A stretch of 64,000 nt of DNA from Candidatus Saccharimonadales bacterium (GCA_035717985.1 DASTHW010000014.1:17691-81690), one strand, 5' to 3'; shown: positions 13,705-51,158, counted from the stretch's first letter. Made by a program: numbers and translations. Notes: a model not told the origin generated them from the letters alone.

Positions 13705-14415
13705 ATGCCCAGTGTTGACGATCCGGTAAAGCTCAAAGAGCGCGAAATTTTAGGCAAGGGCCTGGCTAAAGTCCGTAAAGAAGGCCTGGTGCCAGCGGTT
13801 ATTCATAACCACGGCCAAGAGTCAGTTCACGTTATGGCGCCGGAGACCGAGCTAACCAAAATCTACCTAGCCGCCGGTAAGCACCACCCCCTGGAACTGC
13901 ATGTGGGCTCAAAGCACTTTTTGGCCCTAATTAAAGATGCCCATTTTCATCCTGTAAAGCGGCGTCTTCAGCATGTTGTTTTTCAGGCAATCCGGCGTGA
14001 CGAAAAGGTTGAAGCTGAGGTGCCGATTCGCTTAGACGGCGAAATCCCGGCCGAGAAGATTGGCCTAATGATTCTGCATCAGTTAGATAGCGTACAAGTG
14101 GAGGCTTTGCCGCAAGACTTGCCGGATGTATTAACAGTTAATGCCGAGGCACTGGCCGAACTGCACGATAAAATCACTGTAGCCGATCTTAAAGTGCCAT
14201 CAGGGGTAACTATTTTAACGGAAACAGATTATCCTATTGCCACCGTCGTTGAAACCAAGGCTCAAATTTCTGAAGAAGCTGAAGAGGGTGAACTGACACC
14301 TGAAGAAGCCGCCGCTGAAGCCGAGAAGGCTGAAGGCGGGCAAGGCGACACCGGCAACGCTCCGGCGGGGGCTGAAAAAGAAGCCGCCGGCCAGCAAGCG
14401 CCTGACAGTAAATAG
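13705..14415 (+). CDS. rplY: 50S ribosomal protein L25/general stress protein Ctc, with acidic C-terminal tail
   Basis: KGLAKVRKEGLVPAVIHNHG...HPLEL...LALIKDAHFHPVKRRLQHVVF pattern of the long-form L25/Ctc. Confidence 0.85.
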   Translation: MPSVDDPVKLKEREILGKGLAKVRKEGLVPAVIHNHGQESVHVMAPETELTKIYLAAGKHHPLELHVGSKHFLALIKDAHFHPVKRRLQHVVFQAIRRDEKVEAEVPIRLDGEIPAEKIGLMILHQLDSVQVEALPQDLPDVLTVNAEALAELHDKITVADLKVPSGVTILTETDYPIATVVETKAQISEEAEEGELTPEEAAAEAEKAEGGQGDTGNAPAGAEKEAAGQQAPDSK

Positions 14416-14442
14416 TTCTTTTGCTAAGAACCAAAACCTATT

Positions 14443-14898
14443 GTTACTTTGGGCCGCCAAAGTAACCAAAGCTCTCGGCCTGCTTCAAAAACTTGATGCT
14501 CACTAAAGCTAGAAAATAGCTTGCCTAAAGAGCGCCTCCTAAAGATTGCCACCGGCAATCTTTAGTCGTTAAACATGCTTTATGCACCCAAGGGCGCTAT
14601 TTTCTTAGCCTAGCTCACTTCAGGTATTTGAAGGTGGCCGACCTTGACTCAAAATGCCGACATAAAACATATTCGACCTTTCGATTTTCGTTGTGTTCAA
14701 AAGTCGGGCATGCGAAGCTGACTTGACCGGATGAGTGTAAAACAGTCTGGGCTTGGCCTCCTGAAGATGTTTGACGAATAAATTAGCCAGCGGCTAATTT
14801 ATGAGGAGTTCTTCAGGCGAAGACTGCTTTTACTATCAGCCGCAAGTTCAGCGGAGCCCGCCCGAGAGCTTTACCCAACTTTGGCGGTCCAAAGTTGG
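14443..14898. repeat. 455-nt structured intergenic element (E1) bounded by about 36-nt inverted repeats
   Basis: GTTACTTTGGGCCGCCAAAGTAACCAAAGCTCTCGG (14443-14478) is an imperfect inverted copy of CCGAGAGCTTTACCCAACTTTGGCGGTCCAAAGTTGG (14862-14898). Interior contains perfect hairpins at 14539-14565 and 14780-14800. No ORF. Confidence 0.65.
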
Positions 14899-14907
14899 AA
14901 GTGATAT

Positions 14908-16692
14908 CTACTCTTCCAGGAAGCCGCCGGACTGGTGGCTCCATAGGCGGGCGTAAACACCTTTTTTAGCGAGTAGCTCTTTGTGGCTACCCTGCTCGGC
15001 GATCTCGCCATCCTCTAAAACGATAATCCTATCCATTTTTTGGATAGTGCTTAGCCGGTGGGCAATGATGATGGTAGTTTTATCTTCCATCAATTTCCAA
15101 AGAGCGTCTTGAATCAGTAGCTCGCTCTCACTGTCCAGCTGGCTAGTAGCCTCATCCAGCACTAAAATCGGTGCGTTTTTAAGCATGGCCCGGGCAATGG
15201 CAACGCGCTGTCTTTGGCCGCCGGACAGTTTTACGCCGCGCTCGCCAACCAACGTGCCGTAACCGTTGGTCAAGATACGGATAAACTCGTCGGCGTGCGC
15301 CAGGCTAGCCGCTTTTTCAATTTCAGATTGGTTGGCGCCAGGCTTACCATAGGCAATGTTTTCAGCTAAAGAGCGGTGAAACAGCAAAGGTTCCTGCGGC
15401 ACATAGGCTACTTCCCGGCGTAAATCATCCTGCGTAATTTCAGCTATATTTTGGCCATCTATTAATATTTGGCCGCTGTCAATGTCGGAAAATCTTAGTA
15501 GAATTCTAGTTAGCGTAGTTTTGCCGGAGCCGGAATGGCCGACTAAGCCAACTTTCTCGCCGCCGGCGATTGCCAGATTAAAGTTGGCAAAAATAGCATC
15601 ACCGGCGCCCTCATGAGTAAAGCTAACATTTTTAAATTCAATCCTGCCTTTTTTAACACGTAGCGGCTTAGGCTCGGCCGGGTCTTTGACTTCCGCTGGT
15701 ATGTCTAGGATAGCTACCATGTCGCGGGCGTCGCCCAGGGAGCGGTTGTAGTTACGCAGGGCGCTGTTACTGAATTGAAACAGTTGTGAGGTAATGCCGG
15801 CGGTGTAGTTCAAGATTAGAAAAACGGTACCGATATTGGCGCCAAAATTTACTACGCCAATTACCGCTACGGCAAAAGACAGAGCTGAAATCACACTAAC
15901 TACAGCCGAAAAGTAGCTTTGTTGTTTTTGGTGACCGCGCATCAGCGCCAGCAGGCCGTCGTGGGTGGTGGACGTAATTTTGGCAAAAGCCTTATTTTCG
16001 TATCCTTGGCCGGCAAAGCTTTTAACGTTCATGACATTGGTTACAACGTCGGCCAGGTAGCCGGTTTGGGCGCTCTCATCGGCGGCGTGCTTAGCACTCA
16101 ATCGTCGTACGGCGCGGGTTACAAAAATAGCGCTAATCACATACAAAATTGAAAAGAATAGCAGAAGCACCACAAACAGCGGTGCTCGGCCGGCTAAAAT
16201 TATGGCCGCAAAAATTAGGCTAACAGCTAGAGGCAAAACCTGAAAGATAGTAGTATCGGCCAGGCGGATGTAGGAGCCCATCAATTTGTTAGTCTGGCTC
16301 ACCAGCGAGCCGGAAAAGCGGTTAGCATGGAAGCCCATGCTCATACTCATTAGGTGATCAAATACCCGCCGGGCAATATCCTGCTCAACTTTACCCTCCA
16401 GCGTCCAGGCAAAGCGGTCAACAATCCGCCAGGCCACCACACCGCCAAACAGTACCAGAGCGGCATAAGCGATAATGTCGCCGCCAAAACTGCTCCAAAC
16501 ATGGTTACGAACATAGTCGTGCGTGCTTAGGCGGTTTAAAACCTCAGCCAAAATCAGTGGAGGCAAGAACTGGTTAACCAACACCGTCAGCGGCACAGTA
16601 ACTAGCAAGCCCACCAGCTGACGGCGCCAGCGGGTTACACAGTGCCAGTAAAAGGACACAATACGGCTTGTCTCGTTTTTGTCGACTTGCAA
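14908..16692 (-). CDS. ABC exporter, fused permease/ATPase
   Basis: GHSGSGKTT Walker A, LSGGQRQR, LVLDEATSQLD. TTG start with AGGAGG 9 nt upstream. Confidence 0.9.
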   Translation of the reverse strand: MQVDKNETSRIVSFYWHCVTRWRRQLVGLLVTVPLTVLVNQFLPPLILAEVLNRLSTHDYVRNHVWSSFGGDIIAYAALVLFGGVVAWRIVDRFAWTLEGKVEQDIARRVFDHLMSMSMGFHANRFSGSLVSQTNKLMGSYIRLADTTIFQVLPLAVSLIFAAIILAGRAPLFVVLLLFFSILYVISAIFVTRAVRRLSAKHAADESAQTGYLADVVTNVMNVKSFAGQGYENKAFAKITSTTHDGLLALMRGHQKQQSYFSAVVSVISALSFAVAVIGVVNFGANIGTVFLILNYTAGITSQLFQFSNSALRNYNRSLGDARDMVAILDIPAEVKDPAEPKPLRVKKGRIEFKNVSFTHEGAGDAIFANFNLAIAGGEKVGLVGHSGSGKTTLTRILLRFSDIDSGQILIDGQNIAEITQDDLRREVAYVPQEPLLFHRSLAENIAYGKPGANQSEIEKAASLAHADEFIRILTNGYGTLVGERGVKLSGGQRQRVAIARAMLKNAPILVLDEATSQLDSESELLIQDALWKLMEDKTTIIIAHRLSTIQKMDRIIVLEDGEIAEQGSHKELLAKKGVYARLWSHQSGGFLEE

Positions 16693-16934
16693 GGATAGCG
16701 GCCTCCTGCCGCGTTCATTATCGGCTAATTTTTAAATTAATTTTTTAGGGAAGAGTTAAAGGCCAGCTTTAGAGCGGCCTATAAAATTTGAGATTGTGTT
16801 TAACATTTGGCCGCTCCTTTCTAGCGCTTGATTAGTAATTATCAAAAAGTATAACAGCTTATTGTTAAAAGAAAAAGCGGATGATTAGAATACTTAACAA
16901 GTCAAGTATTTGCCGGTAGCGCTATAATATAAGA

Positions 16935-20869: not shown

Positions 20870-20957
20870 TGGTGGGCGAAAGAGGACTTGAACCTCCACG
20901 AGCTTAAAGCTCACTAGCTCCTGAAGCTAGCGCGTCTACCAATTCCGCCACTCGCCC
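20870..20957 (-). tRNA. tRNA-Leu (CAG)
   Basis: Reverse complement folds as a type II cloverleaf. Anticodon loop TTCAGGA, long variable arm, encoded CCA. Confidence 0.9.
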
Positions 20958-21056
20958 TGATTACCAAATAATTGTACTGATAGAGAGGTGCCTCCGGCAA
21001 GCCCGCCGGCTTAAATACCGAAAGCATAAATGCTATGATTAGACCGACGATAAAAT

Positions 21057-22688
21057 ATGTCTAAAATAGCCCAATACTTGCAGGAACATCTGATGGGGGA
21101 GGTGTCCGCCAGCCCGGAAGTACGCCGGCACTTTGCCCATGACGCCAGTATTTTAAGCCTGGCGCCGCAGGTAGTGGTTTACCCCAGAAACGAGAGTGAT
21201 GTGCGCAAAACCGCCAGCTTTTGCTGGCAGTTGGCTGAGCGTGGCCGGCCCGTACCGCTAACTGCCCGCGGCGGCGGTAGTGACACCTCCGGTGCGGCGC
21301 TAAGCGCCGGCATAATGCTGGTCTTTCCGGCCCACATGAACAAAATCCTAGAGCTAGATCCTAAAAAAGAGCAGATTATCGTTGAGCCGGGCGCTACTTA
21401 TGACAAGCTAGAGCAAACGCTTTTTACCCATGGTCTGTTTTTGCCGCCGTACCCGGCCAGCCAGCTGTACGCTACGGTTGGCGGCGGCATTGCCAATAAT
21501 GCTATCGGCGAGAAGTCGGTCAAATACGGTGCCACCGGCGACTACGTAGAGCGGCTCCGTGTAGTGCTGGCTAACGGCGAGATTATCGAGACCGGCAAGC
21601 TAAGCAAGCGGGAGCTAAATAAAAAGCTTGGCTTATCTAGTTTTGAGGGCGAAGTTTACCGCGGCGTTGATAAGCTGATTGAAGAGAATGCTGAGCTAAT
21701 CCGCCAGCAGGCCGGCCTAAGCCGGGCCGCCCACAACTCTATTGGTTATAATCTCTCGTCCGTAAAAACCAAACACGGCTTTGACCTGACACCGCTGTTT
21801 GTTGGCTCCCAGGGTACGCTGGGCATTGTTACGGAGGCTACGTTAAAAGTAGTTGTCCATAATCCGCTGACTAAATTGATTTTAGTTAGCTTTGAAAGAC
21901 TGGAAGACATGCAGGACGCCCTGCCTAAAATCCTGGCTCTCAAGCCCAGCGTTTGCGATATGATTACCAATTCCGCCATTAAGGAGGTTCTGCGTATCAA
22001 CCCGCATCAGCTGGATAATTTACTTCCCATGCCCAACGCCGAAATTCACCTGCTGGTAGAATTTGACGATTTTAAAAACTCCGATCAAAAAGGCTCGCTG
22101 AAGAAACTGGGTAAGATTACTGACCGGGCCGGCGCCTACAGCCTGGTGGCAGAGGCGCTAGATGACCAAGAAAAGCTAAGAAAAGTCCGTGAAAGTGTGG
22201 CCACGATTCTAAACGAGCCCAGCGGCCAGACTAAAGCCGTGCCGGTGGCCGAAGATATAGCCGTGCCGATAGAAAACTTGGCTGATTTTCTAAAGCAGGC
22301 CGCCAAAATTTATGAATCGCTAAATATCCGGCCGGCGGCCTGGGGGCAGGCCGGTGAGGGCGTGGTGCGCATGCACCCAATGTTTGATTTAGCACAAACC
22401 GGCGACCGCCAGCGCCTTTTCAAACTGTCCGATGCGCTTTATGCCACAGCCCTAAAACTGGGCGGCACCCTCTCAGCCGCTCACGGCGAGGGCCGGGTGC
22501 GGGCGCCATACTCTATATATATGTACGGCGAGGAACTTCAAAAGCTTATGCGGCAAGTTAAACAAGTATTTGACCCGCGCGGTATCTTAAACCCAGGCGT
22601 CAAGACGGCGACGGCCGATGATGTTAAAGCTATAATGCGCGGCGCCTATGATCAGGCCCACCGGCATGAGCACTTACCTCGTAGCTAA
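21057..22688 (+). CDS. FAD-binding oxidoreductase (GlcD/FAD_binding_4 family)
   Basis: VVYPRNESDV...RGGGSDTSG FAD-binding signature and a C-terminal FAD-oxidase domain (HGEGRVRAP). Confidence 0.8.
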   Translation: MSKIAQYLQEHLMGEVSASPEVRRHFAHDASILSLAPQVVVYPRNESDVRKTASFCWQLAERGRPVPLTARGGGSDTSGAALSAGIMLVFPAHMNKILELDPKKEQIIVEPGATYDKLEQTLFTHGLFLPPYPASQLYATVGGGIANNAIGEKSVKYGATGDYVERLRVVLANGEIIETGKLSKRELNKKLGLSSFEGEVYRGVDKLIEENAELIRQQAGLSRAAHNSIGYNLSSVKTKHGFDLTPLFVGSQGTLGIVTEATLKVVVHNPLTKLILVSFERLEDMQDALPKILALKPSVCDMITNSAIKEVLRINPHQLDNLLPMPNAEIHLLVEFDDFKNSDQKGSLKKLGKITDRAGAYSLVAEALDDQEKLRKVRESVATILNEPSGQTKAVPVAEDIAVPIENLADFLKQAAKIYESLNIRPAAWGQAGEGVVRMHPMFDLAQTGDRQRLFKLSDALYATALKLGGTLSAAHGEGRVRAPYSIYMYGEELQKLMRQVKQVFDPRGILNPGVKTATADDVKAIMRGAYDQAHRHEHLPRS

Positions 22689-22738
22689 CGCAGTAATTAT
22701 AAGTTTATATGAACCGCTAGCGTATAATTACTCGAGTA

Positions 22739-23650
22739 GTGATTAAAGCTCAAAATCTCACCAAAAAATACCGCGACAAAACGGCCGTTGATAACTTATC
22801 TTTTGAAGTTGATACCGGCAAAGTGACTGGCTTTTTGGGGCCCAACGGTGCCGGCAAGTCTACCACCATGCGCCTAATGCTGGGCCTCGATAGCGGCCAC
22901 GGGCATACCAGCTGGGACGGCAAGCCGCTGAAACATTATGAGCATCCATCGCGGGTAGTTGGCGTTTTGCTGGAGGCAAAAGCTTTTCATCCCACCCGCA
23001 CAGCCCGCCGGCACTTAATAGTCTTAGCCGCCGCCGGCAATATCCCCAAAAGCCGGGTAGACGAGGTTTTATCACTTGTTGGTTTGAGCGATGTAGCCGG
23101 CGACAAGCCCGGCAAATTTTCTCTAGGCATGAGCCAGCGCCTGGGCATTGCCGCCGCTATTTTGGGTGAACCCAAGTATCTAATTTTAGACGAGCCGGCC
23201 AACGGTCTAGACCCGGAGGGTATTGCCTGGCTGAGACAATTTTTGCGTGATTATGCAGGCAGAGACCGCGGCGTGCTGGTGTCTAGCCACCTCTTAAGTG
23301 AAATGAGCTTAATGGCTGACAACGTAGTGGTTATCGGCAAAGGTAAATTAATAGCCGACACTTCTATGAAGAAATTAGTCACAGGCGCCGGAAGTCGGGT
23401 GTTCGTCCGCGCAAGCGACCTGCCGGCTTTTCAAAAGGCCTTAACTGCCGCCGGCTTTAAATACCAAAAAGAGGATGGCGGCTTAATGATAGACTCAGCC
23501 GGCACAGATGAAATTGGCAAGCTGGCCCACGCCGCTAAGGTTACTTTACTAGAGCTGACTGCCCGCACTGCCTCACTAGAGCAGGCCTTCTTAGAACTGA
23601 CTGAGGGCGCCGCCGAGTATGAGGCCTATGCCAAAAAGGAGAAACAATGA
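22739..23650 (+). CDS. ABC transporter ATP-binding protein (ABC-2 type)
   Basis: GPNGAGKSTT, FSLGMSQRLGIA, LILDEPANGLD. GTG start. 4-nt overlap with the downstream permease gene. Confidence 0.9.
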   Translation: MIKAQNLTKKYRDKTAVDNLSFEVDTGKVTGFLGPNGAGKSTTMRLMLGLDSGHGHTSWDGKPLKHYEHPSRVVGVLLEAKAFHPTRTARRHLIVLAAAGNIPKSRVDEVLSLVGLSDVAGDKPGKFSLGMSQRLGIAAAILGEPKYLILDEPANGLDPEGIAWLRQFLRDYAGRDRGVLVSSHLLSEMSLMADNVVVIGKGKLIADTSMKKLVTGAGSRVFVRASDLPAFQKALTAAGFKYQKEDGGLMIDSAGTDEIGKLAHAAKVTLLELTARTASLEQAFLELTEGAAEYEAYAKKEKQ

Positions 23651-24468
23651 CCTCTGCGCTCAAAGCCGAATTCAAAAAACTGCTAAGCGTGCGCTCCACC
23701 TATGTGCTAATGCTGGTATTTTTGCTATTAAGTGCTTTCTTTGCCTTTTACGTTCATGGCTATAAAGATTCGCAGGCCCAGCACTTGATTCTTACCGGAC
23801 AATCACCAAAGGATCTGGCCGGCGCGGCTTTATTTGCGTCTTCTTCTATCACCCAAGTAGCCAACGTTATATCTGTCGCCGGAGCCATAATTGCCTTACT
23901 CTTGTTGGCCCATGAATATCGTTATAACACCATTATTTATACGCTAACCGCCAGCAATAGCCGCAGTAGGGTTCTGGCCGCCAAAATTGTGGCCGTACTT
24001 TGTGTAATCTTTGTTTACTGCCTGGTAGCCACAGCTATTTCGCTGGCTCTGGTCTGGGCCGGCGCCTCAGCGGCCGGCTACCCCCTGCCTCACCAGGACA
24101 TCAATTTTGTGACCTTTTTTGCCAAATGTCTCTTTTACTGCGAGGCTTTTGCCATGGCCGGGCTGGTTTTTATAACCGTTATCCGAAATCAAATCGGAGC
24201 CATAGTCGCCCTGCTGGTTTTACCCAACACTCTAGAAGGCCTGCTGAGTTTATTGCTTAAGCAAAATTCCGTCTATATGCCGTTTACCGCTTTGTCTCAA
24301 GTCATCCAAGGCCCCACCATAAGGATTGCGCATGCGCCGGCCCACCCGGCTAGGGATATGGCTACCGGTAGTCTGACGCCTGGCAAGGGCGCCCTGGTTT
24401 ACATGGCCTATTTAGTAGCCGCTTGGATTATCGCTTGGTATTTATTCCTGCGCCGCGACGCCACCTAG
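23647..24468 (+). CDS. ABC-2 type transporter permease
   Basis: Six predicted TM segments and translational coupling (ATGA) to the ATPase gene. Confidence 0.8.
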   Translation: MTSALKAEFKKLLSVRSTYVLMLVFLLLSAFFAFYVHGYKDSQAQHLILTGQSPKDLAGAALFASSSITQVANVISVAGAIIALLLLAHEYRYNTIIYTLTASNSRSRVLAAKIVAVLCVIFVYCLVATAISLALVWAGASAAGYPLPHQDINFVTFFAKCLFYCEAFAMAGLVFITVIRNQIGAIVALLVLPNTLEGLLSLLLKQNSVYMPFTALSQVIQGPTIRIAHAPAHPARDMATGSLTPGKGALVYMAYLVAAWIIAWYLFLRRDAT

Positions 24469-24525
24469 CTAGTTTGGCAGTTAGACATGCTAATGTAGTT
24501 CAGTAATAATATTACCAGCGTAAGT

Positions 24526-24599
24526 GGCGCGTTGGCCGAGGAGTTAGGCAAGGGTCTGCAAAACCCTGTACACGAGTGCGAATCTCGTACGCGCCTCCA
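24526..24599 (+). tRNA. tRNA-Cys (GCA)
   Basis: Cloverleaf with anticodon loop CTGCAAA, 3-bp D stem, encoded CCA. Confidence 0.85.
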
Positions 24600-24611
24600 G
24601 AACACAATGAA

Positions 24612-24697
24612 GGGCGAGTGGCGGAACTGGTATACGCGACGGACTTAAAATCCGTTGCCGATAAGGCTTGAGGGTTCGAGTCCCTCCTCGCCCACCA
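24612..24697 (+). tRNA. tRNA-Leu (UAA)
   Basis: Type II cloverleaf with anticodon loop CTTAAAA, long variable arm, encoded CCA. Confidence 0.9.
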
Positions 24698-24698
24698 T

Positions 24699-24730
24699 AA
24701 AAAGACCAACTCTTGCAGTTAGGTCTTTTT
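24699..24730 (+). terminator. Rho-independent terminator after the tRNA pair
   Basis: AAAAGACC...GGTCTTTTT hairpin with a T-run. Confidence 0.7.
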
Positions 24731-24786
24731 ATGTCGGCTTCTCTTTAGGAATATATTTAGGGCTGATATATAGTTAGAACTAAGTC

Positions 24787-25647
24787 ATGCTTACGCTTAT
24801 AAGTGTGTTTTTATTTGTGGCGTCCAGCGGCCTTTTGGTCTGGTATTTTTTAAAGAAAGACGGCGGCGCCAAAGAGCCAAAGGGAGCCCTGCTGGCGGCT
24901 GTCGGGTTTGGCGTTTTAGCCTCGGCGGCGGCGGCCTGGGCCGAGCTGTTTCTGCCTAAAACCAACGGCCCAGCCATAACTTTAGCCAGTCTGGCTCTAG
25001 TCAGTCTTGGTGTTGGCATAATTGAAGAGTGCGCTAAAAGTGTGCCGCTAGCACTTTTTACCAGAGGTAAAAGCTACTTCAACGAGCATACCGACGGAGT
25101 AATTTATTTTGGCATTGCCGGCTTGACCTTTGGCTTGATAGAAAATCTAGTTTACGTTTTTTTGTACCGAAACCGGCTAGGTGCCAGCGAAATGCTAGGC
25201 ATTTTGCGCCTGGTCATTTTATTTTTCTTTCATGCGGCCTCAGCCGGAATAGTGGGGTACTACTTTGCTAAGGCTAAAATCCAAAAGCAAACTCTGCTAA
25301 AACCAATTACCGCCCTGGGGATTATGGCTATAGTGCATGGGCTTTATGACTTTTTGTTTTTGTACGGCGCCTTTGCCTATCAAAAAGGCGGTTTAACATC
25401 AGATACAAGCTCGGCCTTAGTGGTCTTAGCGCTGGTGGGCGGCCTGATAATTTCGGCCCTGCTTAATACATTTTTGTTTCTATATTTTATGCGGGCTCGG
25501 CAGTGGGATGCCAGCATTGGGTTGGCGGTTGATCCTAAGCTACCGGCTCTCCAGTCTCCGCAGGCAATGCTTACTGCCCAGCCGCCAGCAGTGCAGGCTG
25601 GCTGGGCCGGCTCGGCGCCGGTGATTGTCAGTCCGGATAGGCGATAG
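24787..25647 (+). CDS. PrsW-family intramembrane protease-like protein
   Basis: Multi-TM with GIIEECAKSVPL (EExxK) and HGLYDF motifs. Confidence 0.7.
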   Translation: MLTLISVFLFVASSGLLVWYFLKKDGGAKEPKGALLAAVGFGVLASAAAAWAELFLPKTNGPAITLASLALVSLGVGIIEECAKSVPLALFTRGKSYFNEHTDGVIYFGIAGLTFGLIENLVYVFLYRNRLGASEMLGILRLVILFFFHAASAGIVGYYFAKAKIQKQTLLKPITALGIMAIVHGLYDFLFLYGAFAYQKGGLTSDTSSALVVLALVGGLIISALLNTFLFLYFMRARQWDASIGLAVDPKLPALQSPQAMLTAQPPAVQAGWAGSAPVIVSPDRR

Positions 25648-25715
25648 TGCAAAAGTCTTGGTAAAAAAAGAAATTTCGCTGATAATAAGCTTAAGCTAAA
25701 TAGAAAAGAGTTAAT

Positions 25716-26651
25716 ATGCCTCCTCAGACTCCGCCAATTTATCCCTCGGCTCAAGCGCCGCAGGTTGGTCCCCAGCCCGCCCCGGCTATGCCGCCGCCCT
25801 CGCCTGTTCCGTCACCGGCTCCGCCCGGACCAGAGCCAAGCCCAACCCCGCCTGGAGCCGCTCCAACACCAGCCCAGCCTGGACTGCCGGGCAGTCAGCC
25901 TATGCAGTTAAATCCGGCTTACGGCCACACCGGCCTAGCTACCGCCAGCCTGGTATTGGGAATTGTATCTTTGCCAGCTTCTATTTTAAGCCTGTTCACC
26001 TTGCCGATTCCGGTAACTGCTATCGTCCTGGGTTGCATTAGTTTAAAACGCAAAAAAGGTTTTGCGCTGGCCGGAATTATTTTAGGCGTAATCGGCATAA
26101 TTTTGTCCGGCGTGGTGCTGGCTGTTGGCCTTAATCTGGAAAAACAAAAGACCAATCGAACTTCGCTGAATTCTAGTACTACCGCAAACGTTAGCAGTGC
26201 CGGCATTAGCTCTACTTGCTATAGTTTTGCGCTACCGGCAGGGTTCACAAGCGGCGACGTTACCAAAAACAGCGACTGCGTCACCGTCCTGCAAAAGCAA
26301 GACGGCACCAACGACCTGGCCATTACCTCTACTAACTTGACCCAAAATGTATCTACGGCCGATCAAGACGCCTATCTTAAAGCTGTAATTGACAGCCTGC
26401 AGTCTCAAGAGCAGGGCAAACTTACCCTTAGTAATAGAAAGTACATTAATCTAGATGGCGTGCGGGCCTACGAGGCTACCGGCGCCGAAAGTCAGGGTAA
26501 ATATACTTACGGCGGGATCATTGCCGCCCTAGCGCCTAAAGACTACATGTCTGTTTCCGGTTTAAAGTTACGGGCCTTTCTAATTGCTTTTGATTCATCT
26601 ACCAACCAAGATACACTTGATAAAGTTGCCAGCTCATGGCATTGGCAGTAG
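25716..26651 (+). CDS. Hypothetical membrane protein (Pro-rich N-terminus, DUF4190-like TM pair, extracytoplasmic domain)
   Basis: PPxP-rich first 70 aa, two TM helices with a GIILGVIGIILSG pattern, about 170-aa C-terminal domain. Confidence 0.6.
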   Translation: MPPQTPPIYPSAQAPQVGPQPAPAMPPPSPVPSPAPPGPEPSPTPPGAAPTPAQPGLPGSQPMQLNPAYGHTGLATASLVLGIVSLPASILSLFTLPIPVTAIVLGCISLKRKKGFALAGIILGVIGIILSGVVLAVGLNLEKQKTNRTSLNSSTTANVSSAGISSTCYSFALPAGFTSGDVTKNSDCVTVLQKQDGTNDLAITSTNLTQNVSTADQDAYLKAVIDSLQSQEQGKLTLSNRKYINLDGVRAYEATGAESQGKYTYGGIIAALAPKDYMSVSGLKLRAFLIAFDSSTNQDTLDKVASSWHWQ

Positions 26652-26660
26652 AGTAGCAAT

Positions 26661-26954
26661 ATGGACGATTCCCACCCGCATGTAGTTCAGGCCCACCATC
26701 ACGGGCTAGTGGCCGGTACAATTATTGGCTCGGTAGCCGTAACTCTTTTTTTGGCTGTTGCCGCCGTGGTAGCCAGACCAAATTTGCTGACTCATCCGCT
26801 CGATTTAACCTCTGATATTTCAGTTAAATCATCGAGTAATTCAAACCAGGCTTTAGGGTCGGCCGCCAGTGCCAGCCAGAGCCAATTTACTGGCGGACGA
26901 GGTCTGGCCGCCGGCTCTGCCGCTCAAAGCGCCGTGGTATTTTCCGGCCGCTAA
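26661..26954 (+). CDS. Hypothetical small membrane protein
   Basis: 97 aa with one TM helix. Immediately follows the previous gene. Confidence 0.45.
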   Translation: MDDSHPHVVQAHHHGLVAGTIIGSVAVTLFLAVAAVVARPNLLTHPLDLTSDISVKSSSNSNQALGSAASASQSQFTGGRGLAAGSAAQSAVVFSGR

Positions 26955-26968
26955 TTAATCTCTGTATT

Positions 26969-27706
26969 TTAAGCCGCCAGAGTTTGCTTGGCGGTAACTG
27001 GGTCGTCGGTAAAGATACGGTCTACGCCGATTTCGGCCATCCGGCGGACATCTTCCGGCGCGTTGACCGTATAAACATTAACTTCAAAACCATTATCATG
27101 AGCCGATTTAACCAATTCTGGCGAGGCAAATTTTAGATCAGGATTAATGGCCACGGCGCCCAGGCGGCGGCCTAGATCTACGGCCGGCTGAGGGCCGCCT
27201 AGCTCTTGCCACTGCTGGCCGTCCAGCAAAACGGCAATGTCAAGTTCAGGCATTATCTGCTTAAACTTCTCAAGCTCATCGTGCCTAAAAGAAGAAACTA
27301 TAAAATCAGCTGGCCGCCAGCCGCTAGCTAGGTATCTTTTAACAATTGTGCTTACCGGCTCAGCTGTATTGGCGCCTTTTAACTCAATATTTACTTTGGT
27401 GCGCTGGCCGTCTTTACTGTGTCGATCTACTAAATCTAAAACTTCTTCCAGCGTCGGGATTTGGTAAAACTTGCCGTCAGTAAAGCCGTCGTGAACGTTA
27501 AAGGTGAAACTATTGACCAAGCCGTGGGCCGCCCCGCGGGTAATTTGATCTAGCTCATCATCATGAAAAATTATTACTTCGCCGGTTTTAGCAAGCTCAG
27601 TATCAAACTCAATCATCGGCACCTTATTATTTAGCGCCAACTCAAAAGAAGGTAGTGTGTTCTGGGGTAGTAAGGCTCTAGCGCCGCGGTGGCCGATTAT
27701 TTCCAT
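26969..27706 (-). CDS. Glycerophosphodiester phosphodiesterase
   Basis: IIGHRGA...PQNTLPSFE...EFD GDPD motifs. ATG at 27706 is preferred over the upstream TTG at 27730. Confidence 0.85.
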   Translation of the reverse strand: MEIIGHRGARALLPQNTLPSFELALNNKVPMIEFDTELAKTGEVIIFHDDELDQITRGAAHGLVNSFTFNVHDGFTDGKFYQIPTLEEVLDLVDRHSKDGQRTKVNIELKGANTAEPVSTIVKRYLASGWRPADFIVSSFRHDELEKFKQIMPELDIAVLLDGQQWQELGGPQPAVDLGRRLGAVAINPDLKFASPELVKSAHDNGFEVNVYTVNAPEDVRRMAEIGVDRIFTDDPVTAKQTLAA

Positions 27707-27793
27707 AAAATTTGCTTTTTTAACTTGCAAGCATATTGTATAAAAGCTACTCTATAAAAGTAAAATAAAAGCGGTGGGCTATAGGAGGGACCA

Positions 27794-27949
27794 ATGAGTT
27801 GGAGCTGGAGCTCACCAATTGCTTTGGGGTTATTCTTACTGATGTGCGGAGGTACGGCAGTGCTAGTCGGAATTGGTATTTCGGCCGCCGCTTCCAGCGC
27901 AAGATGGGTAGCTGAACTGCCGGTTGTCGGTAGCCGCCGCCGGCGCTAA
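27794..27949 (+). CDS. Small membrane protein (51 aa), absent from the ORF track
   Basis: ATG preceded by ATAGGAGGGACCA (strong SD), one TM helix, RRRR C-terminus. Followed by a clean terminator. Confidence 0.55.
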   Translation: MSWSWSSPIALGLFLLMCGGTAVLVGIGISAAASSARWVAELPVVGSRRRR

Positions 27950-27973
27950 GCCTTAAAATCAAAATAAAAATTT

Positions 27974-28001
27974 CCCCGGCCCATGAGCCGGGGATTTTTT
28001 T
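27974..28001 (+). terminator. Rho-independent terminator
   Basis: CCCCGGC-CCATGA-GCCGGGG followed by ATTTTTTT. Confidence 0.75.
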
Positions 28002-28088
28002 ATTGCATATCAGATGGTGGTGTAAAACATCTAACTGCTCTTATCTTGCCGCCGAATATAAATTATTTAAACAAAGGGGGATTTTGAA

Positions 28089-28961
28089 ATGGTAAAACAG
28101 GCAATGGGTAGAACCGAGATAAAGCAGTCTGAGCAGTTAAGTACTAGGCCGGGTAAGCAGGTAGAGATGAACTCTAAGCCGGCCTCAAAAGGTAAAAATT
28201 ATAAACCAGCCGGCAAGCTGAAGGGCAAAGTGGCCATAATCACCGGCGGCGATAGCGGCATTGGCCGGGCGGTGGCCATAGCCTTTGCTCAAGAAGGCGC
28301 CGATGTGACGATTATTTTTCTAAATGAAGAAAAAGATGCCGCCATTGCTAAAAGCATGGTGGAGAATGAGGGCGCTAGGTGCCTTGCCATAAAAGGCGAT
28401 ATCGGCGATAAAGATTTTTGCCAAATAGCCGTCAATAAAACAGTTAATGAATTTGGCAGGCTGGATATTTTGGTCAATAACGCCGGCGAACAGCACCCCA
28501 AAGGCAAGCCGGAAGATATCAGTGCCGAGCAGTTAGAACGGACTTTTAGAACTAATGTTTTTGGTATGTTTTATCTGACGCAGGCGGCCCTAAAGCATAT
28601 CGGCAAGGGCGGCGCGGTTATTAACACCACATCCGTGACTGCTTATAAGGGCCACCCCACTTTGCTAGATTACTCTTCAAGTAAAGGCGCGATTTTAGCC
28701 TATAGCCGCACACTGTCGCAAATGCTGGCTGAGCGGGGGATAAGGGTCAACGCTGTGGCGCCTGGGCCCATTTGGACACCGCTAATCCCGTCAACCTTTC
28801 CTAAAGACGAGGTAAAAGATTTTGGTAAAAACACGGCCCTTGGCCGGCCCGGCCAACCGGAAGAGCTGGCGCCGGCTTATGTCTTTTTGGCTAGTGATGA
28901 TTCCAGCTATATGACCGGCCAAACTATGCATATAAACGGCGGCACGATAGTCAACGGCTAG
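28089..28961 (+). CDS. SDR-family oxidoreductase (YghA/YdaD general-stress type)
   Basis: TGGDSGIGRA cofactor motif, NNAG, and YxxxK (YSSSKGA). Confidence 0.85.
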   Translation: MVKQAMGRTEIKQSEQLSTRPGKQVEMNSKPASKGKNYKPAGKLKGKVAIITGGDSGIGRAVAIAFAQEGADVTIIFLNEEKDAAIAKSMVENEGARCLAIKGDIGDKDFCQIAVNKTVNEFGRLDILVNNAGEQHPKGKPEDISAEQLERTFRTNVFGMFYLTQAALKHIGKGGAVINTTSVTAYKGHPTLLDYSSSKGAILAYSRTLSQMLAERGIRVNAVAPGPIWTPLIPSTFPKDEVKDFGKNTALGRPGQPEELAPAYVFLASDDSSYMTGQTMHINGGTIVNG

Positions 28962-28970
28962 ATATAAAAA

Positions 28971-29047
28971 TGGTGGGATTGGAGGGACTCGAACCCCCGA
29001 CTTTCTCGGTGTAAACGAGACGCTCTAGCCAACTGAGCTACAATCCC
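28971..29047 (-). tRNA. tRNA-Val (UAC)
   Basis: Reverse complement gives a cloverleaf with anticodon loop TTTACAC and encoded CCA. Confidence 0.9.
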
Positions 29048-29073
29048 GACAGAGGGAAATTATACCATAATAA

Positions 29074-29775
29074 ATGGTATACTATATACGCATGAGGTAT
29101 AAAACGGCAAATCACAAACCCATAGTCTGGTCACCGGAATTTTCATACTGTATCGGTCTCATTGCTACAGACGGCTGTCTGTCCAGCGACAATCGTCACA
29201 TAGACTTTACTTCGAAGGACTATGAGCTTGCTGAAATATTCCGGAATATCATTAAGCCGAGTGCGATTATCGGCAAAAAAAGAAATGGCCAGGGCGCCTT
29301 TGCATATCGAGTGCAATTTAGTGATGTTTCTCTGTACGATTTTCTTTTAAAGTTGGGTTTGACCCCCAGAAAGAGTAAAACCTTGGGGCGCTTGTTGGTT
29401 CCCGATGAATTTTATGCTGATTTTTTACGAGGATGCTGGGACGGTGACGGGTCAAGTAATGGTTACTGGGATAGGCGTTGGCGATCAAGCTTTATGTATT
29501 ATATGTCCCTAGCTTCAGCTAGCACCGCTTTTCTTGAGTGGATTAGATATAAAAATACTGAATTAATTGAAATTTCTGCCCCCGCCATCAAGGAGTATCT
29601 TAAGAACGATAGAACGTATTATGTTTTAAGTTACGCCAAGAAAGATTCTCGAAAACTTTTTGAGTTTATTTATTATGCCGAGGGATTACCATTTTTAAAG
29701 AGAAAGCATAATAAAATGCTAAAATTTTTTATGACAGATCCAGCTTCTGCGAGGGTGAGTGGTGAAATTAGGTAA
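29074..29775 (+). CDS. LAGLIDADG-family homing endonuclease (double-motif)
   Basis: Two LAGLIDADG-type motifs: YCIGLIATDGCL and DFLRGCWDGDGSS. AT-rich. The last 23 nt overlap tRNA-Leu(GAG). Confidence 0.8.
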   Translation: MVYYIRMRYKTANHKPIVWSPEFSYCIGLIATDGCLSSDNRHIDFTSKDYELAEIFRNIIKPSAIIGKKRNGQGAFAYRVQFSDVSLYDFLLKLGLTPRKSKTLGRLLVPDEFYADFLRGCWDGDGSSNGYWDRRWRSSFMYYMSLASASTAFLEWIRYKNTELIEISAPAIKEYLKNDRTYYVLSYAKKDSRKLFEFIYYAEGLPFLKRKHNKMLKFFMTDPASARVSGEIR

Positions 29776-29838
29776 ACACGCCAGATTGAGGTTCTGGTGC
29801 CGCAAGGCTTGGAGGTTCAAGTCCTCTCTCACCCACCA
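29753..29838 (+). tRNA. tRNA-Leu (GAG)
   Basis: Type II cloverleaf with acceptor GGGTGAG/CTCACCC, anticodon loop TTGAGGT, encoded CCA. Confidence 0.85.
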
Positions 29839-29844
29839 ATTAAT

Positions 29845-30279
29845 ATGAATTTGTCTGAATTAAAAGATTTGCCCAGCCCGTTTTACCGGGTTACCGCCAA
29901 GGCGGTTATTTTTGACGATCAAGACCAGCTGTTGGTCGGCAAGGGCGAAGAGGCTGATGATAGCTGGGAAATGCCGGGCGGCGGCCTGGAGCACGATGAG
30001 TCAATTGAGGACTGCATTAGGCGCGAGCTGGCCGAGGAGTTGGGTGCGCAGGTAGCCGAAGTGGGTGAGCTTATGTTTGTTTACCGCGGCCGGAGCGTGC
30101 ATGGCTGGATGATTTGCCGGCTGGCCTTTGCGGTAAAGCTCAAAAATTTTGATTTTAAGTTCGGCGACATGAAAGAAGCCAAGTTTGTAACACGCGAAGA
30201 ATTTATGGCTCTAGATTTTGCCGCCGACGAAGGCACTGTCAAAACCAAAGTCGACCAGCTTTGGCCCGCCACAGCTTGA
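29845..30279 (+). CDS. NUDIX hydrolase
   Basis: Nudix box GGGLEHDESIEDCIRRELAEELG. The listed start 29797 lies inside the tRNA, so ATG 29845 is used. Confidence 0.85.
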   Translation: MNLSELKDLPSPFYRVTAKAVIFDDQDQLLVGKGEEADDSWEMPGGGLEHDESIEDCIRRELAEELGAQVAEVGELMFVYRGRSVHGWMICRLAFAVKLKNFDFKFGDMKEAKFVTREEFMALDFAADEGTVKTKVDQLWPATA

Positions 30280-30318
30280 ACAAACAGATGTAATCTCGTA
30301 AAATAAGAGACTGCTGTT

Positions 30319-30394
30319 GGCGCTTTAGCTCAGCTGGTAGAGCAGAGGCCTGAAGAGCCTTGTGTCCCCAGTTCGAGTCTGGGAGGCGCCACCA
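30319..30394 (+). tRNA. tRNA-Phe (GAA)
   Basis: Canonical cloverleaf with anticodon loop CTGAAGA and encoded CCA. Confidence 0.92.
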
Positions 30395-30593
30395 CGCAAG
30401 ACCTAATTTCGGCCCCGCCCGAAATTTCGGCAATCAAGTGGCCAAACTTTTGCAGGGCCTAGCATTGTTCTTGCTTACCAATTTTATAAAAATCCGCTTT
30501 GCAAATTTTTGTAAAATTGAGAGGAGGAGCATAGCATCAAGGTGAAGCTTTTGCTGACGAGGCAAAACGAACTAGATGCGTAGGCTCCGACGA

Positions 30594-30619
30594 GCGGGTG
30601 TAGCTCAGTTGTTTAGAGT
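30594..30619 (+). pseudogene. Orphan 5' fragment of tRNA-Gly (acceptor 5' strand plus D arm)
   Basis: 25 of 26 nt identical to 30771-30796 of the intact tRNA-Gly. No matching 3' half follows. Confidence 0.7.
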
Positions 30620-30770
30620 GAAAAATGCCGGTGGCATTTTGCAAGGGAATCTTCCGATGGCAACTGGTTGCCAGTCGTGAAGTTCCGGGGTCGCGGAACG
30701 TGACCTTACTTGCCAGGCCAAGGAAGCGCTACCCAAAATTGAAAGGTAACCTTTACAATCAGAATATTAT

Positions 30771-30847
30771 GCGGGTGTAGCTCAGTTGTTTAGAGCGCTT
30801 CCTTGCCAAGGAAGAGGCCGTGAGTTAGAGTCTCATCACCCGCACCA
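30771..30847 (+). tRNA. tRNA-Gly (GCC) with atypical D and T loops
   Basis: Cloverleaf with anticodon loop TTGCCAA and encoded CCA. D loop AGTTGTTTA lacks GG; T loop is TTAGAGT (A instead of C56). Confidence 0.8.
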
Positions 30848-44466: not shown

Positions 44467-45333
44467 TTGTACGAACAAATTTCTGCCAACAAGCGGCGCA
44501 CCTGGTTTTTGATGCTGGCATTCGTGGTGGTGGCCTGGGCGCTAGCCTTCATAATTGGCAAGGCTCTGGGTAGTATCGATTTTCTATTCATAGTTGGGAT
44601 TTTGTCTTTGGTTTACGCCGGCTATAGCTATTTTGCCGGGGCTAAGATGGCACTGGCACTAAACGGGGCCAAAGAGATTCAAAAAGCCGACGATCCGCGG
44701 CTATGGCGGACAGTTGAAAATCTATCAATCACCGACGGTCTACCTATGCCCAAGGTCTATATAATGGACGACCCGGCACCTAACGCTTTTGCTACCGGCC
44801 GTGACCAGAACCATTCCGCCGTCTGTGCTACCACCGGCCTGCTAAGAATAATGGATGATACCGAACTTCAGGGAGTGATTGCCCACGAACTGGGGCATGT
44901 CAAAAATTATGACATTAAAGTTAATACTCTCGCCTTTGCCCTGGTAGGCATTATTTCGCTAATTGCTGATTTCTTTTTGCGGTTTGCTTTCTTCGGCGGC
45001 GAGCGGGAGGAACGCAACCAGCAATTAGCTATTTTAGCCCTAGTGGCGGCCATTTTGGCGCCAATTGCCGCCAGCCTACTACAGCTGGCTATTAGCCGCC
45101 GGCGGGAATATCTGGCTGATGCTACAGGTGCTTTGACGACCCGCTACCCCGAAGGCCTAGCCAGTGCCCTGGAAAAGCTGGAAGATGTCAGCACGGCTAC
45201 TAGAAAGCAAAATACCTCAACGGCCCATATGTTTTTTGCCAGCCCACTTCGCGGCCACAGCCTGCTTAATTTATTTAGCACCCACCCGCCGCTGGAAGCC
45301 CGCGTCAAGGCCCTCCGAGAGATGAAACTATAA
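44467..45333 (+). CDS. htpX: Zinc metalloprotease HtpX (M48)
   Basis: HELGHV zinc motif, 4 TM topology, TTG start. Confidence 0.88.
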   Translation: MYEQISANKRRTWFLMLAFVVVAWALAFIIGKALGSIDFLFIVGILSLVYAGYSYFAGAKMALALNGAKEIQKADDPRLWRTVENLSITDGLPMPKVYIMDDPAPNAFATGRDQNHSAVCATTGLLRIMDDTELQGVIAHELGHVKNYDIKVNTLAFALVGIISLIADFFLRFAFFGGEREERNQQLAILALVAAILAPIAASLLQLAISRRREYLADATGALTTRYPEGLASALEKLEDVSTATRKQNTSTAHMFFASPLRGHSLLNLFSTHPPLEARVKALREMKL

Positions 45334-45394
45334 CCTTTCATACTTTTGTACGACAAAGCAATGCTTTTTTCTTTTCCAAAGAAACAAATTCTTT

Positions 45395-45523
45395 GCCACC
45401 TTTTGCCGAAAAGGTGGCGCCAAACTCTCAGCGGCTGAAAAACTAAGAGCATCATAGCTTACCCAAAAAGCGGGCCAAGCCGAACGCCCTCGCTGACGCT
45501 CGGTTAAACATGCGTTTGGCGTC
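45395..45523. repeat. Structured intergenic element (E2) of the GCGCCAAA/TTTGGCGC family
   Basis: GGCGCCAAAC (45416-45425) pairs with GTTTGGCGTC (45514-45523). There is a 10-bp hairpin GCCACCTTTT-GCCG-AAAAGGTGGC. It shares the 11-mer GTTAAACATGC with E1. Confidence 0.55.
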
Positions 45524-45601
45524 TGCTTTTTAAGTGTCGCTAGGCCTTCTGTTTTTCAGATGCTGAAGGTTAAAACGGATGATTTTCGATATAATATAGC
45601 T

Positions 45602-46555
45602 ATGGCAAATGCGGCGGTAAAAAAGCGGCCAGAACCGGTTTTTAGACCCGGTCGTACCCGCAGACTCAATAAAAAGCAGGCTAAGACCAAAGCTAAGGCC
45701 GAAGCTAGAGCCAATACTCCGGTGCCGAACAGCTTTCGGTTGACCGCTCAGGTGGCTGGTATTTTCAAGAAAAATTGGAAGATTCTGCTGGGCATCGTAG
45801 TTGTCTATCTGATTTTAAATATCATTTTTGCCAGCGGCCTATCGGGGCTAGGTAATGCTGTTTCAACCATCAAAGTTGATCTAAAAAATGCCAACGGCGG
45901 CGGCCAAGCCCTAGCTAAAGGCATCAGCGGCTTTGGCTCTTTGGTGGGTAGCGCCGGGGCTTCTGGATCGGCCAGCGCTGGGATTTTGCAAAGCGTGCTG
46001 TTTGTGTTGGAGAGTCTGGTGATTATTTGGTCACTGCGCCAACTGCTGGCCGGCAAGACAATTGGCGTTAAGGAGGCTTATTACCACTCAATGTTTCCGT
46101 TGATACCATTTCTTTTAGTGCTGGCTGTAATTATTATTCAGCTTTTGCCAATAACCATTGGCGCGGCTGTGCTTAGCGCCGTACTGACTAGTACGGTCTC
46201 CAGCCTGACGCTGGCTAGCTGGCTATCTTGGATTTTCTTTATTTTGCTGGCCGGCTGGTCTTTTTATATGGTCAGCGGTTCGATTTTTGCCGCCTATATT
46301 GTCACCCTGCCGGATATGGCACCGCGGGACGCTCTACGCTCTGCCCGCAACTTAGTTCGCTTTCGACGCTGGCAGATTTTGCCTAAAATCTTGTACCTGC
46401 CGGTTTTTATTTTGATCGTTATGGCCATTATCATCGTGCCGCTAATTATTTTTGCTTCCTTTTTGGTGGCGCCGGTTTTTTATGTGCTTAGCATGCTGGC
46501 GATTTTGTTTGTTCACTCCTATTTATATAGTCTGTATCGAGGCTTACTGGAATGA
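45602..46555 (+). CDS. Hypothetical polytopic membrane protein
   Basis: ATG 45602 lies 6 nt after TATAAT (45590-45595). Lys-rich N-terminus then about 6 TM helices. Confidence 0.6.
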   Translation: MANAAVKKRPEPVFRPGRTRRLNKKQAKTKAKAEARANTPVPNSFRLTAQVAGIFKKNWKILLGIVVVYLILNIIFASGLSGLGNAVSTIKVDLKNANGGGQALAKGISGFGSLVGSAGASGSASAGILQSVLFVLESLVIIWSLRQLLAGKTIGVKEAYYHSMFPLIPFLLVLAVIIIQLLPITIGAAVLSAVLTSTVSSLTLASWLSWIFFILLAGWSFYMVSGSIFAAYIVTLPDMAPRDALRSARNLVRFRRWQILPKILYLPVFILIVMAIIIVPLIIFASFLVAPVFYVLSMLAILFVHSYLYSLYRGLLE

Positions 46556-50074: not shown

Positions 50075-50151
50075 TGGTGGAGATGGGGGGAGTTGAACCC
50101 CCGACCTCCGCAATGCGAATGCGGCGCTCTAGCCAACTGAGCTACATCCCC
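50075..50151 (-). tRNA. tRNA-Ala (CGC)
   Basis: Cloverleaf with anticodon loop TTCGCAT, G3:U70 identity pair, encoded CCA. Confidence 0.9.
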
Positions 50152-50198
50152 AACCTGTTAAATATATACCATGAACTTTATGTAGGATACCCTTACGT

Positions 50199-50215
50199 AT
50201 ACCCCACTGGGGTAT
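50199..50215 (+). promoter_or_regulatory. CsoR-type operator palindrome
   Basis: ATACCCC-ACT-GGGGTAT lies 15 nt upstream of the csoR-like start. Matches the GC-tract inverted repeats bound by CsoR-family repressors. Confidence 0.65.
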
Positions 50216-50229
50216 GTTAAAATATATTT

Positions 50230-50960: not shown

Positions 50961-51081
50961 ATTAACAGATGAAATTTGAGTATAATTTTTATCTGTCACT
51001 ATAACCAAACCTCAAAACTAGGCAGGTTGTTTGAAGTTTTGAGAGCTACGTCGTAGCCTTTAACAATTTTGATTCTGATAC

Positions 51082-51158
<77 letters not shown>

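Follow-up and report, generated by a model that had tools for sequence, protein, structure and literature searches.

The 492-nt sequence that separates the rplY stop codon from that of a convergent ABC exporter gene (14416-14907) almost certainly belongs to a family of repeats with dispersed copies, and the 455-nt region within it is, with near certainty, a head-to-head doublet of two diverged family units, each about 205 nt long. With pattern scans and a covariance model (R1), more than 60 copies were located across loci of Saccharibacteria and other Patescibacteria, three of them within the window, by which we mean the whole 64,000-nt stretch of DNA analysed here. In our best reading the family is new, a CPR-wide hairpin-plus-rod repeat that is found in no catalogued RNA family. 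We give about an even chance to the view that it is a selfish, structure-dependent repeat mobilized in trans, similar to REPINs, BIMEs and MITEs.

Two facing units between convergent genes

An earlier reading, made from the sequence alone, had placed a structured, non-coding element of 455 nt with terminal inverted repeats (TIRs) of about 36 nt between rplY and a convergent ABC exporter gene, and had seen no credible ORF there. Domain matches on both genes confirm the neighbours, and nothing longer than 51 aa is open in the 492-nt spacer. The doublet exactly occupies the gap between the two convergent stop codons in the window, and the same DNA was also found in a Logan assembly; the L25 protein is identical to that of a Candidatus Saccharimonadales MAG. 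The parts of the region, and a third copy in the window, are listed below.

13705-14415, + strand: rplY (L25), with Pfam Ribosomal_L25p and TL5_C matches
14415-14431, + strand: small accessory hairpin of the left unit (GTTCTT-TTGCT-AAGAAC), read from the sequence; its first base is the last of the rplY stop codon, and CAAAAC comes next
14443-14466, + strand: terminal hairpin of the left unit, GTTACTTTGG-GCCG-CCAAAGTAAC, the core of the left "TIR" of the sequence-only reading
14467-14474, + strand: linker of the left unit, CAAAGCTC (family consensus (G)CAAA(A/G)CTC)
14475-14641, + strand: rod of the left unit, an imperfect palindrome with an apex hairpin at 14539-14565 (self-palindrome and fold)
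14649-14696, no strand: spacer between the two units
14704-14865, - strand: rod of the right unit, with an apex hairpin at 14778-14802 (self-palindrome)
14866-14874, - strand: linker of the right unit, GTAAAGCTC on the - strand
14875-14898, - strand: terminal hairpin of the right unit, the core of the right "TIR", CCAACTTTGG-ACCG-CCAAAGTTGG on the - strand and CCAACTTTGG-CGGT-CCAAAGTTGG on the + strand; it stops 9 nt short of the ABC exporter stop codon
14908-16692, - strand: ABC exporter gene, with ABC_membrane and ABC_tran matches
45368-45575, + strand: third, solo copy of the family (covariance model, hairpin scan and fold)

The sequence features of 14416-14907 are real and highly non-random. 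Two pairs of inverted arms were found, one of 18 nt (14446-14463 and 14878-14895, 94% complementary) and one of 11 nt (14468-14478 and 14862-14872, 100% complementary). With up to three mismatches allowed, the 18-mer core occurs at just these two places in 64 kb, and two or more matches were obtained in 0 of 100 shuffles. Self-comparison gave nested palindromes, formed by the whole region, its left part (14475-14641) and its right part (14704-14865). The local hairpins at the two ends (14443-14466 and 14875-14898), the perfect 12-bp hairpin at 14539-14565 and the long imperfect rod had all been noticed before and were all recovered, the rod as the self-palindrome 14704-14865 with a perfect 11-bp apex hairpin at 14778-14802. 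Folding with RNA parameters yielded -188.4 kcal/mol for the + strand (z -9.9) and -194.3 kcal/mol for the - strand (z -8.8), folding with DNA parameters gave a z of -9.4, and in none of the three runs did a shuffle fold equally well. The predicted fold also allows the whole region to close through long-range pairing of both ends. A unique spacer or a chance palindrome is ruled out by the shuffles and by the existence of the repeat family.

The two halves are 68% identical to each other, and each aligns over about 150-200 nt with single units of other genomes at 67-74% identity (blastn). R1 matched them separately, the left unit at 14438-14648 (157 bits, E 2.5e-37) and the right unit at 14697-14903 (184.9 bits, E 2.6e-44). 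Because the halves match single units elsewhere as well as each other, what had been taken for one element bounded by TIRs is better described as two independent units with their hairpins pointing outward. The inverted ends of about 36 nt do exist; however, since each half is a diverged copy of a unit that is also found alone, they are the hairpin modules of two units and not the TIRs of one element. The alternative proposed at the same time, a single 455-nt structured RNA, is unsupported because the conserved, covarying structure belongs to each unit.

Facing doublets like that of the window are present in L038 (713-1134), L018 (1780-2105), L034 (1053-1418), L036, L059, L021 and L072, and one could envisage that the 455-nt doublet is itself the mobile unit, a MITE with TIRs of about 36 nt, and that solo units are half-elements left after deletion. 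The recurrence of doublets with the same hairpin-plus-linker bounds in at least seven other loci (326-555 nt), the occurrence of about one third of the units in doublets and the capacity of the two ends to pair over a long range would fit such an arrangement. We nevertheless consider it quite improbable: solo units, which outnumber paired ones about two to one, are complete and retain both arms of the rod; a doublet joins members of different subfamilies that are only about 68-70% identical; spacers and lengths differ among doublets, the inter-unit spacer being 19 nt or absent in L038 and L072; and no target-site duplication (TSD) was found. In addition, the three outermost base pairs are not the same in the two end hairpins (GTT/AAC versus CCA/TGG), yet each set is paired locally, so selection has acted on the local hairpins and not on end-to-end pairing.

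The solo copy was detected by R1 at 45390-45445 (34.7 bits, E 1.2e-6), and its limits, 45368-45575, are that match lengthened by eye. Its hairpin (45395-45418, GCCACCTTTT-GCCG-AAAAGGTGGC), followed by GCCAAACTCTC and a rod, has another stem (ACCTTTT/AAAAGGT) with the family loop and linker, and the copy folds with a z of -5.7 in the layout of the other units. It sits between same-strand ORFs (44467-45333 and 45560-46555), and the end of its rod overlaps the longest ORF downstream at the first ATG. At 47947-47968, a GCCG loop closes a 9-bp hairpin (TTACTAGCC-GCCG-GGCTAGTAA) that has neither the family linker nor a rod and is probably unrelated and terminator-like. The window also holds nine tRNA genes (20873-30844 and 50078-51155), six of them clustered at about 24.5-30.8 kb (Rfam scan).

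Copies, hosts and neighbours of the family

When one genome per species was scanned for the exact 18-mer ACTTTGGRCCGCCAAAGT, 52 genome loci were found, about 31 of them in Saccharibacteria or other CPR MAGs. At these CPR-type loci, the 18-mer is followed by CAAA(A/G)CTCYCGG and by about 190 nt more of similarity; eight are in UBA5145, four in PFEG01 and three in JACPKF01, and Buchananbacteria and AT-rich "Gammaproteobacteria" MAGs are also represented. A spread beyond CPR was rejected, as matches in non-CPR genomes were limited to the 18-mer and occurred at chance frequency. With a stricter pattern we obtained 35 metagenome loci, in which R1 gave 42 matches. Besides the two facing window units at 157-185 bits, the model recovered dozens more, some without the exact 18-mer (L015 7737-7944, L038 707-913 and 4384-4584, and L044 1877-2063). 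Blastn, the pattern scans and the covariance model show a dispersed family with many copies where the alternative had been a unique spacer.

Complete units are also held by MAGs labelled as uncultured Gammaproteobacteria (L016, L035 and L042, CAZILC01; L057, OZ246394.1). The named relatives of the DUF2298 protein of these MAGs are mostly CPR (Saccharimonadales, Levyibacteriota and Roizmanbacteria), with a few under other labels, and the Gammaproteobacteria label is probably wrong.

All copies are intergenic, and their neighbours are unrelated housekeeping genes, including those for tRNA synthetases, PGK, trigger factor, PriA, ParB and ATP synthase. Of the gene ends adjoining the units, 51 are 3' ends and 26 are 5' ends; most often, a stop codon precedes the hairpin end by 23-57 nt. 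A role as a cis-regulatory leader was rejected because the neighbours are unrelated and the units face either way. Inverted doublets recur, and the family has no associated gene. The searches for gene neighbours covered the 8-kb loci around the matches and the 64-kb window; Pfam found no transposase, TnpB/IscB, RT, Cas or RAYT on about 35 flanking ORFs, only housekeeping families, and a Y1_Tnp domain was likewise absent from the flanking ORFs checked. Literature searches on the sequence, on CPR or Saccharibacteria repeats and on structured RNAs returned nothing relevant.

In a Buchananbacteria MAG (L014 6550-7447, also L083 479-1376), facing units flank a 150-aa, very hydrophobic ORF for which no Pfam family was found; it could be there by coincidence or could be a small cargo gene. 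Blastn against phage and plasmid collections gave no match to the units, and a phage or plasmid origin was rejected. The G+C-rich viral contig L009 (IMGVR_UViG_3300023283_000182) shares the hairpin alone, within chance expectation: the 18 nt occur twice (613-630 and 950-967), in both cases in the loop region of a hairpin that is larger and itself repeated (AATCGCCCTTGCGTGACACCCCC...GGGGGTGTCACGTAAGGGCGAT); a third copy of this larger hairpin lacks the 18-mer. This pair is probably due to chance.

An almost invariant hairpin and a covarying rod

All units fold alike. Read hairpin-first, a unit consists of an optional small hairpin, a 10-bp hairpin, the unpaired linker (G)CAAA(A/G)CTC and a single long imperfect rod of about 165-190 nt. 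The 10-bp hairpin is almost invariant across units; its loop is NC(C/A)G and its inner 7 bp are usually ACTTTGG/CCAAAGT. This 7-bp core and an RCCG loop are common to the 31 CPR-type loci, where the outer three bases of the stem are variable yet complementary (gtt/aac, gac/gtc, ctt/aag, gcc/ggc and others), which completes a covarying 10-bp stem. Core variants also occur (ACCTTTT/AAAAGGT, ACTTTTGT/ACAAAAGT and TCTTTGG/CCAAAGA beside ACTTTGG), and the NC(C/A)G loop and the linker are kept in them. The rod is closed by the helix CYCGGGC...GCCCGRA. Units like those of the window have the apex TGCC-ACY-GGCA and conserve the internal-loop motifs GAACTCCTC and GTCAAACAG in the hairpin-first reading. 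In L018, L044, L040, L050, L021, L038 and L045, a small YTTT..AAAR hairpin whose stem covaries stands ahead of the main hairpin, and such an accessory hairpin is present in many units irrespective of the adjoining gene.

The alignments of homologous units show that the predicted base pairing has been maintained through compensatory changes, as had been suggested for checking by covariation. Among seven sequences aligned with MAFFT, 31 of the 56 consensus pairs carried compensatory changes. When 15 units were aligned with MAFFT only, 89.6% of the cells were paired (38-52% in slid controls), two-sided changes were seen in 31 of 46 pairs (8-14 in controls) and the covariation score was 0.49, as against about 0.1 in the slid controls. 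Fitting 24 units to the model gave 88.4% paired cells and two-sided changes in 47 of 56 pairs, in an alignment that leans towards the model structure. The covarying stems argue against small coding ORFs in the rod.

Known RNA families, strand and transcription

The sequence-only reading had found no RNase P, tmRNA, SRP or 6S signatures and had proposed an Rfam search. At the gathering threshold, Rfam 15 matched tRNAs and one RNase P elsewhere in the window and 18 loci, and nothing on the units; permissive searches of the window and related loci (E limits of 10 and 1) gave chance-level matches only. No match was thus found at any threshold tried, and RNase P, tmRNA, SRP, 6S, OLE, ROOL, GOLLD and raiA, as well as HEARO, IS605 motifs, group I/II introns and ribozymes, were rejected as identities of the units.

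The strand that carries the hairpin at its 3' end gave the better fold in 36 of 46 units; it is, however, the strand rich in G. Among 1x1 mismatches in Watson-Crick-only folds of all subfamilies, 29 were of the G-U type and 27 of the A-C type, and such equality is the expectation for decaying DNA copies. The model-fitted alignment held 66 G-U and 32 A-C mismatches, 28 of the 66 coming from two conserved positions. For window-like units, the strand with the hairpin at its 3' end showed 40 G-U against 11 A-C, a count that is biased because the structure was predicted on the same strand; it hints at strand-specific selection. A sigma-70-like sequence, TTGACT-18-CATATT, lies at 14644-14673 on the + strand and is directed into the right unit (one found, 0.3 expected from shuffles), and on the - strand the left hairpin, with AAUAGGUUUU after it, has a terminator-like score, being the sole hairpin that passed a simple scan. 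Neither of these window sites has a conserved equivalent in the other copies. No intrinsic terminator was found for either flanking gene, the hairpins being followed by CAAAGC or GTAAAG and not by U runs; across the family, U-rich sequence precedes the hairpin and A-rich sequence follows it, in the opposite order to an intrinsic terminator.

Amplification and occupancy of the rplY site

Copies at different loci of UBA5145 are 85-92% identical, showing that copy number has grown within at least one genome. The amplified block in UBA5145 (L024, L032, L037, L049, L059 and L061) is longer than the unit, reaching about 115 nt past the hairpin and about 45 nt past the rod, with extra hairpin modules on both sides (GTCATCCCAGCGCAGGCTGGGAT, GGTGCCGTTAGGCACC and GGTGACATCACC). 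Pairs of copies in PFEG01 and DATIJT01 are about 80% identical. The three copies in the window are nearer to copies of other genomes (72-79%) than to one another; several old subfamilies therefore coexist and are occasionally amplified within a genome. Most copies within a genome are just 65-80% identical, which is old for an active element and counts against mobility.

Relatives share the gene order uvrA, VTT protein, rplY, a variable slot and uvrC. Compared with 13705-16934 of the window, the slot between rplY and uvrC holds a rhodanese gene in L002 and L097, is empty in L098 and holds an opposite-strand ABC exporter in L008 and L099. The junction of the exporter-bearing L008 has 94 nt with a short AT-rich palindrome, and in L099, the stop codons of rplY and the ABC exporter overlap. 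A filter-free model scan detected no unit at the rplY site in seven syntenic relatives whose rplY is 70-79% identical. The window spacer is therefore extra DNA compared with its nearest sampled relatives, and occupancy of the syntenic site varies among genomes. Empty sites, which had been proposed as a check on mobility, were therefore found, in a comparison among distant genomes in which gain and loss are inseparable. The more distant L034 has rplY followed by a doublet and then an opposite-strand ABC ATPase gene; its L25 is just 58% identical to that of the window and its ABC protein is a different paralogue. The doublet in L034 could be an old shared insertion lost in intermediates, or the same type of site could have been used again. 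The other proposed check, for a TSD, came out negative: no direct repeat surrounds 14443-14898 or the whole spacer in the window, and the boundaries of the UBA5145 copies are too fuzzy to define one.

Comparison with known repeats and RNAs

We compared the family with known systems. In its behaviour it is closest to REP/REPIN/BIME sequences and to long palindromic, MITE-like repeats (Correia, ERIC and RPE), and since their defining features are lacking in part, we file it as similar in working and as a member of none.

The REP/REPIN/BIME repeats of proteobacteria are mobilized by RAYT, an IS200-like Y1 transposase. A REP is an imperfect palindrome of 20-40 nt with a GTAG or CGTC tetranucleotide at one end, and the RAYT gene is typically flanked by repeats. 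The family likewise is extragenic, non-coding and multi-copy, has hairpins with compensatory stem changes and no gene inside, is often arranged in inverted doublets and is concentrated downstream of genes. However, its unit is about 205 nt long (hairpin plus 165-nt rod), it carries no GTAG/CGTC tag, its hairpin being flanked by variable bases and then CAAA(A/G)CTC, and the halves of its doublets are diverged subfamily members, whereas REP halves are near-identical. No RAYT gene was found in the 8-kb loci or the 64-kb window, and the host group is Patescibacteria.

Correia/NEMIS, ERIC/IRU, RUP, BOX and Rickettsia RPE are intergenic repeats of 100-500 nt that form long imperfect stem-loops, and MITE-like or palindromic repeats are often co-transcribed with neighbouring genes. 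The family resembles them in being intergenic, folded, located beside unrelated genes and variable between relatives, and it has the small size, many dispersed copies and short ORFs alone that are typical of MITEs. Of the earlier description as MITE-like, then, the multi-copy, dispersed and non-coding nature and the presence or absence at syntenic sites stand, whereas no TSD and no autonomous parent with the same ends were found. No parent IS with matching ends was found in the loci and window searched, no transposase domain occurs in ORFs next to or between units, and there was no phage or plasmid match. Moreover, the conserved part is one asymmetric end module, the NCCG-loop hairpin with CAAAACTC, and not two TIRs: the inverted ends of the doublet are modules of separate units, and a solo unit has one module. 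The family also spans several CPR classes and not one genus.

HUH/Y1 enzymes read hairpins on folded single-stranded DNA, and IS200/IS605 elements need no TIR or TSD. The units resemble IS200/IS605 PATEs in that a single-stranded motif and the subterminal hairpin beside it are both conserved. PATEs, however, have similar hairpins at both ends on the same strand, whereas a solo unit has one NCCG-loop hairpin; and because the loops of the doublet read GCCG and CGGT on the same strand, its two hairpins are inverted, unlike those of PATEs. Neither tnpA/tnpB nearby nor an Rfam match to an IS605-type RNA motif was found. The family resembles rod-shaped small RNAs such as 6S RNA in its length of about 200 nt and its covariation, and in forming a long imperfect rod whose internal loops are conserved. 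It differs from them in its many copies per genome, recent amplification and additional invariant hairpin outside the rod, and in having no conserved promoter and no Rfam 6S match.

Selfish repeat, small RNA or cis element

Two facing copies of a non-coding interspersed repeat that depends on its structure occupy the spacer. If the family is a selfish repeat, its units would be, or would formerly have been, mobilized in trans as folded single strands. The invariant hairpin and linker may then be the recognition or cleavage module of a putative enzyme, comparable to that in REP/REPIN-RAYT and other hairpin-recognizing systems. Units would settle mostly just downstream of genes, where they may be tolerated and co-transcribed as 3' UTR structure; both genes flanking the window doublet read into its units hairpin-first, so this is the simplest expectation here. 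The doublet would be the product of two insertions or of the arrival of one copy next to another, and not of a recent inverted duplication. What speaks against mobility, apart from the age of most copies, is that no copy adjoins a transposase-like gene and that the 8-kb loci and the 64-kb window offer no candidate for the mobilizing enzyme; the conservation of the hairpin across CPR classes and of the unpaired rod motifs would also fit a functional RNA.

The main rival takes this last point further and regards the units as multi-copy genes for structured small RNAs of about 200 nt that act in trans or sponge a protein, with the invariant hairpin as a protein-binding or terminator module and the doublet as two divergently transcribed paralogues. 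Strong covariation, a hairpin kept across CPR classes, and conserved unpaired motifs with near-invariant tandem U-G pairs on the modelled strand argue for it, as do the better folding of that strand in 36 of 46 units, the 40 G-U to 11 A-C counted in units like those of the window, the promoter-like sequence at 14644-14673 that points into the right unit and the terminator-like left hairpin with AAUAGGUUUU on the - strand. Yet no promoter stands at a fixed distance, and doublet spacers of 19 nt or none leave no room for divergent promoters; a U tract does not generally follow the hairpin; G-U and A-C are equal across all subfamilies when the bias of structure prediction is removed; the better folding of the strand goes along with its surplus of G; RNA genes do not usually show this copy number, recent amplification, variable site occupancy or absence of any linked gene; and no Rfam family matches. 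On balance, we regard small-RNA genes as a doubtful explanation. A further possibility, compatible with a mobile origin but making mobility secondary, is that the units serve the host in cis as bidirectional transcription barriers or stabilizers of mRNA 3' ends, roles that have been proposed for REP/BIME sequences between genes. The enrichment of gene 3' ends on both sides of units (51 versus 26), the hairpin end 23-57 nt after a stop codon, the exact fit of the window doublet between convergent stops and the equally good folding of both strands are consistent with this. We think it unlikely, however, in that close relatives have 0-94 nt at the same junction or a short AT-rich palindrome, the U-rich and A-rich flanks are placed in reverse of an intrinsic terminator, one third of the flanking gene ends are 5' ends, and a mere barrier needs neither an invariant loop nor a linker.

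Beyond the choice among these accounts, the hairpin-plus-rod unit may represent an undescribed, Patescibacteria-wide class, either an ncRNA with an invariant protein-binding hairpin that has spread to many copies in these reduced genomes or a new type of single-strand mobile element guided by its hairpin; we entertain this as possible, while leaning against it. It would then be one of a small number of repeat or RNA families confined to the CPR radiation: if transcribed, the units would be the first CPR-specific multi-copy structured RNAs, and if mobile, they would point to an unrecognized mobilization system in obligate episymbionts. In either case, the invariant hairpin and linker offer a sequence handle towards the protein that reads them. 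CPR/Patescibacteria genomes, at about 1 Mb, are compact and considered poor in repeats and mobile DNA; about three copies per 64 kb here, and a higher density in some relatives, mean that they tolerate or use sizeable folded non-coding DNA.

Runs of N occur in or beside units at some loci, L036 has duplicated sequence on either side, and several UBA5145 copies adjoin N runs; the N runs are consistent with the repeats causing gaps in MAG assemblies. A separate, AT-rich perfect palindrome (AAATACTTGAC-TA-GTCAAGTATTT) recurs directly after genes in several Saccharimonadales (L006 3741-3770, L007 1805-1833 and L008 1239-1260, and approximately at L023 6455-6480, L045 2805-2825 and L051 6500-6530). 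It holds TTGACT on both strands and has the look of a bidirectional terminator typical of the lineage. The ends of two Logan contigs within it suggest that this palindrome breaks assemblies.
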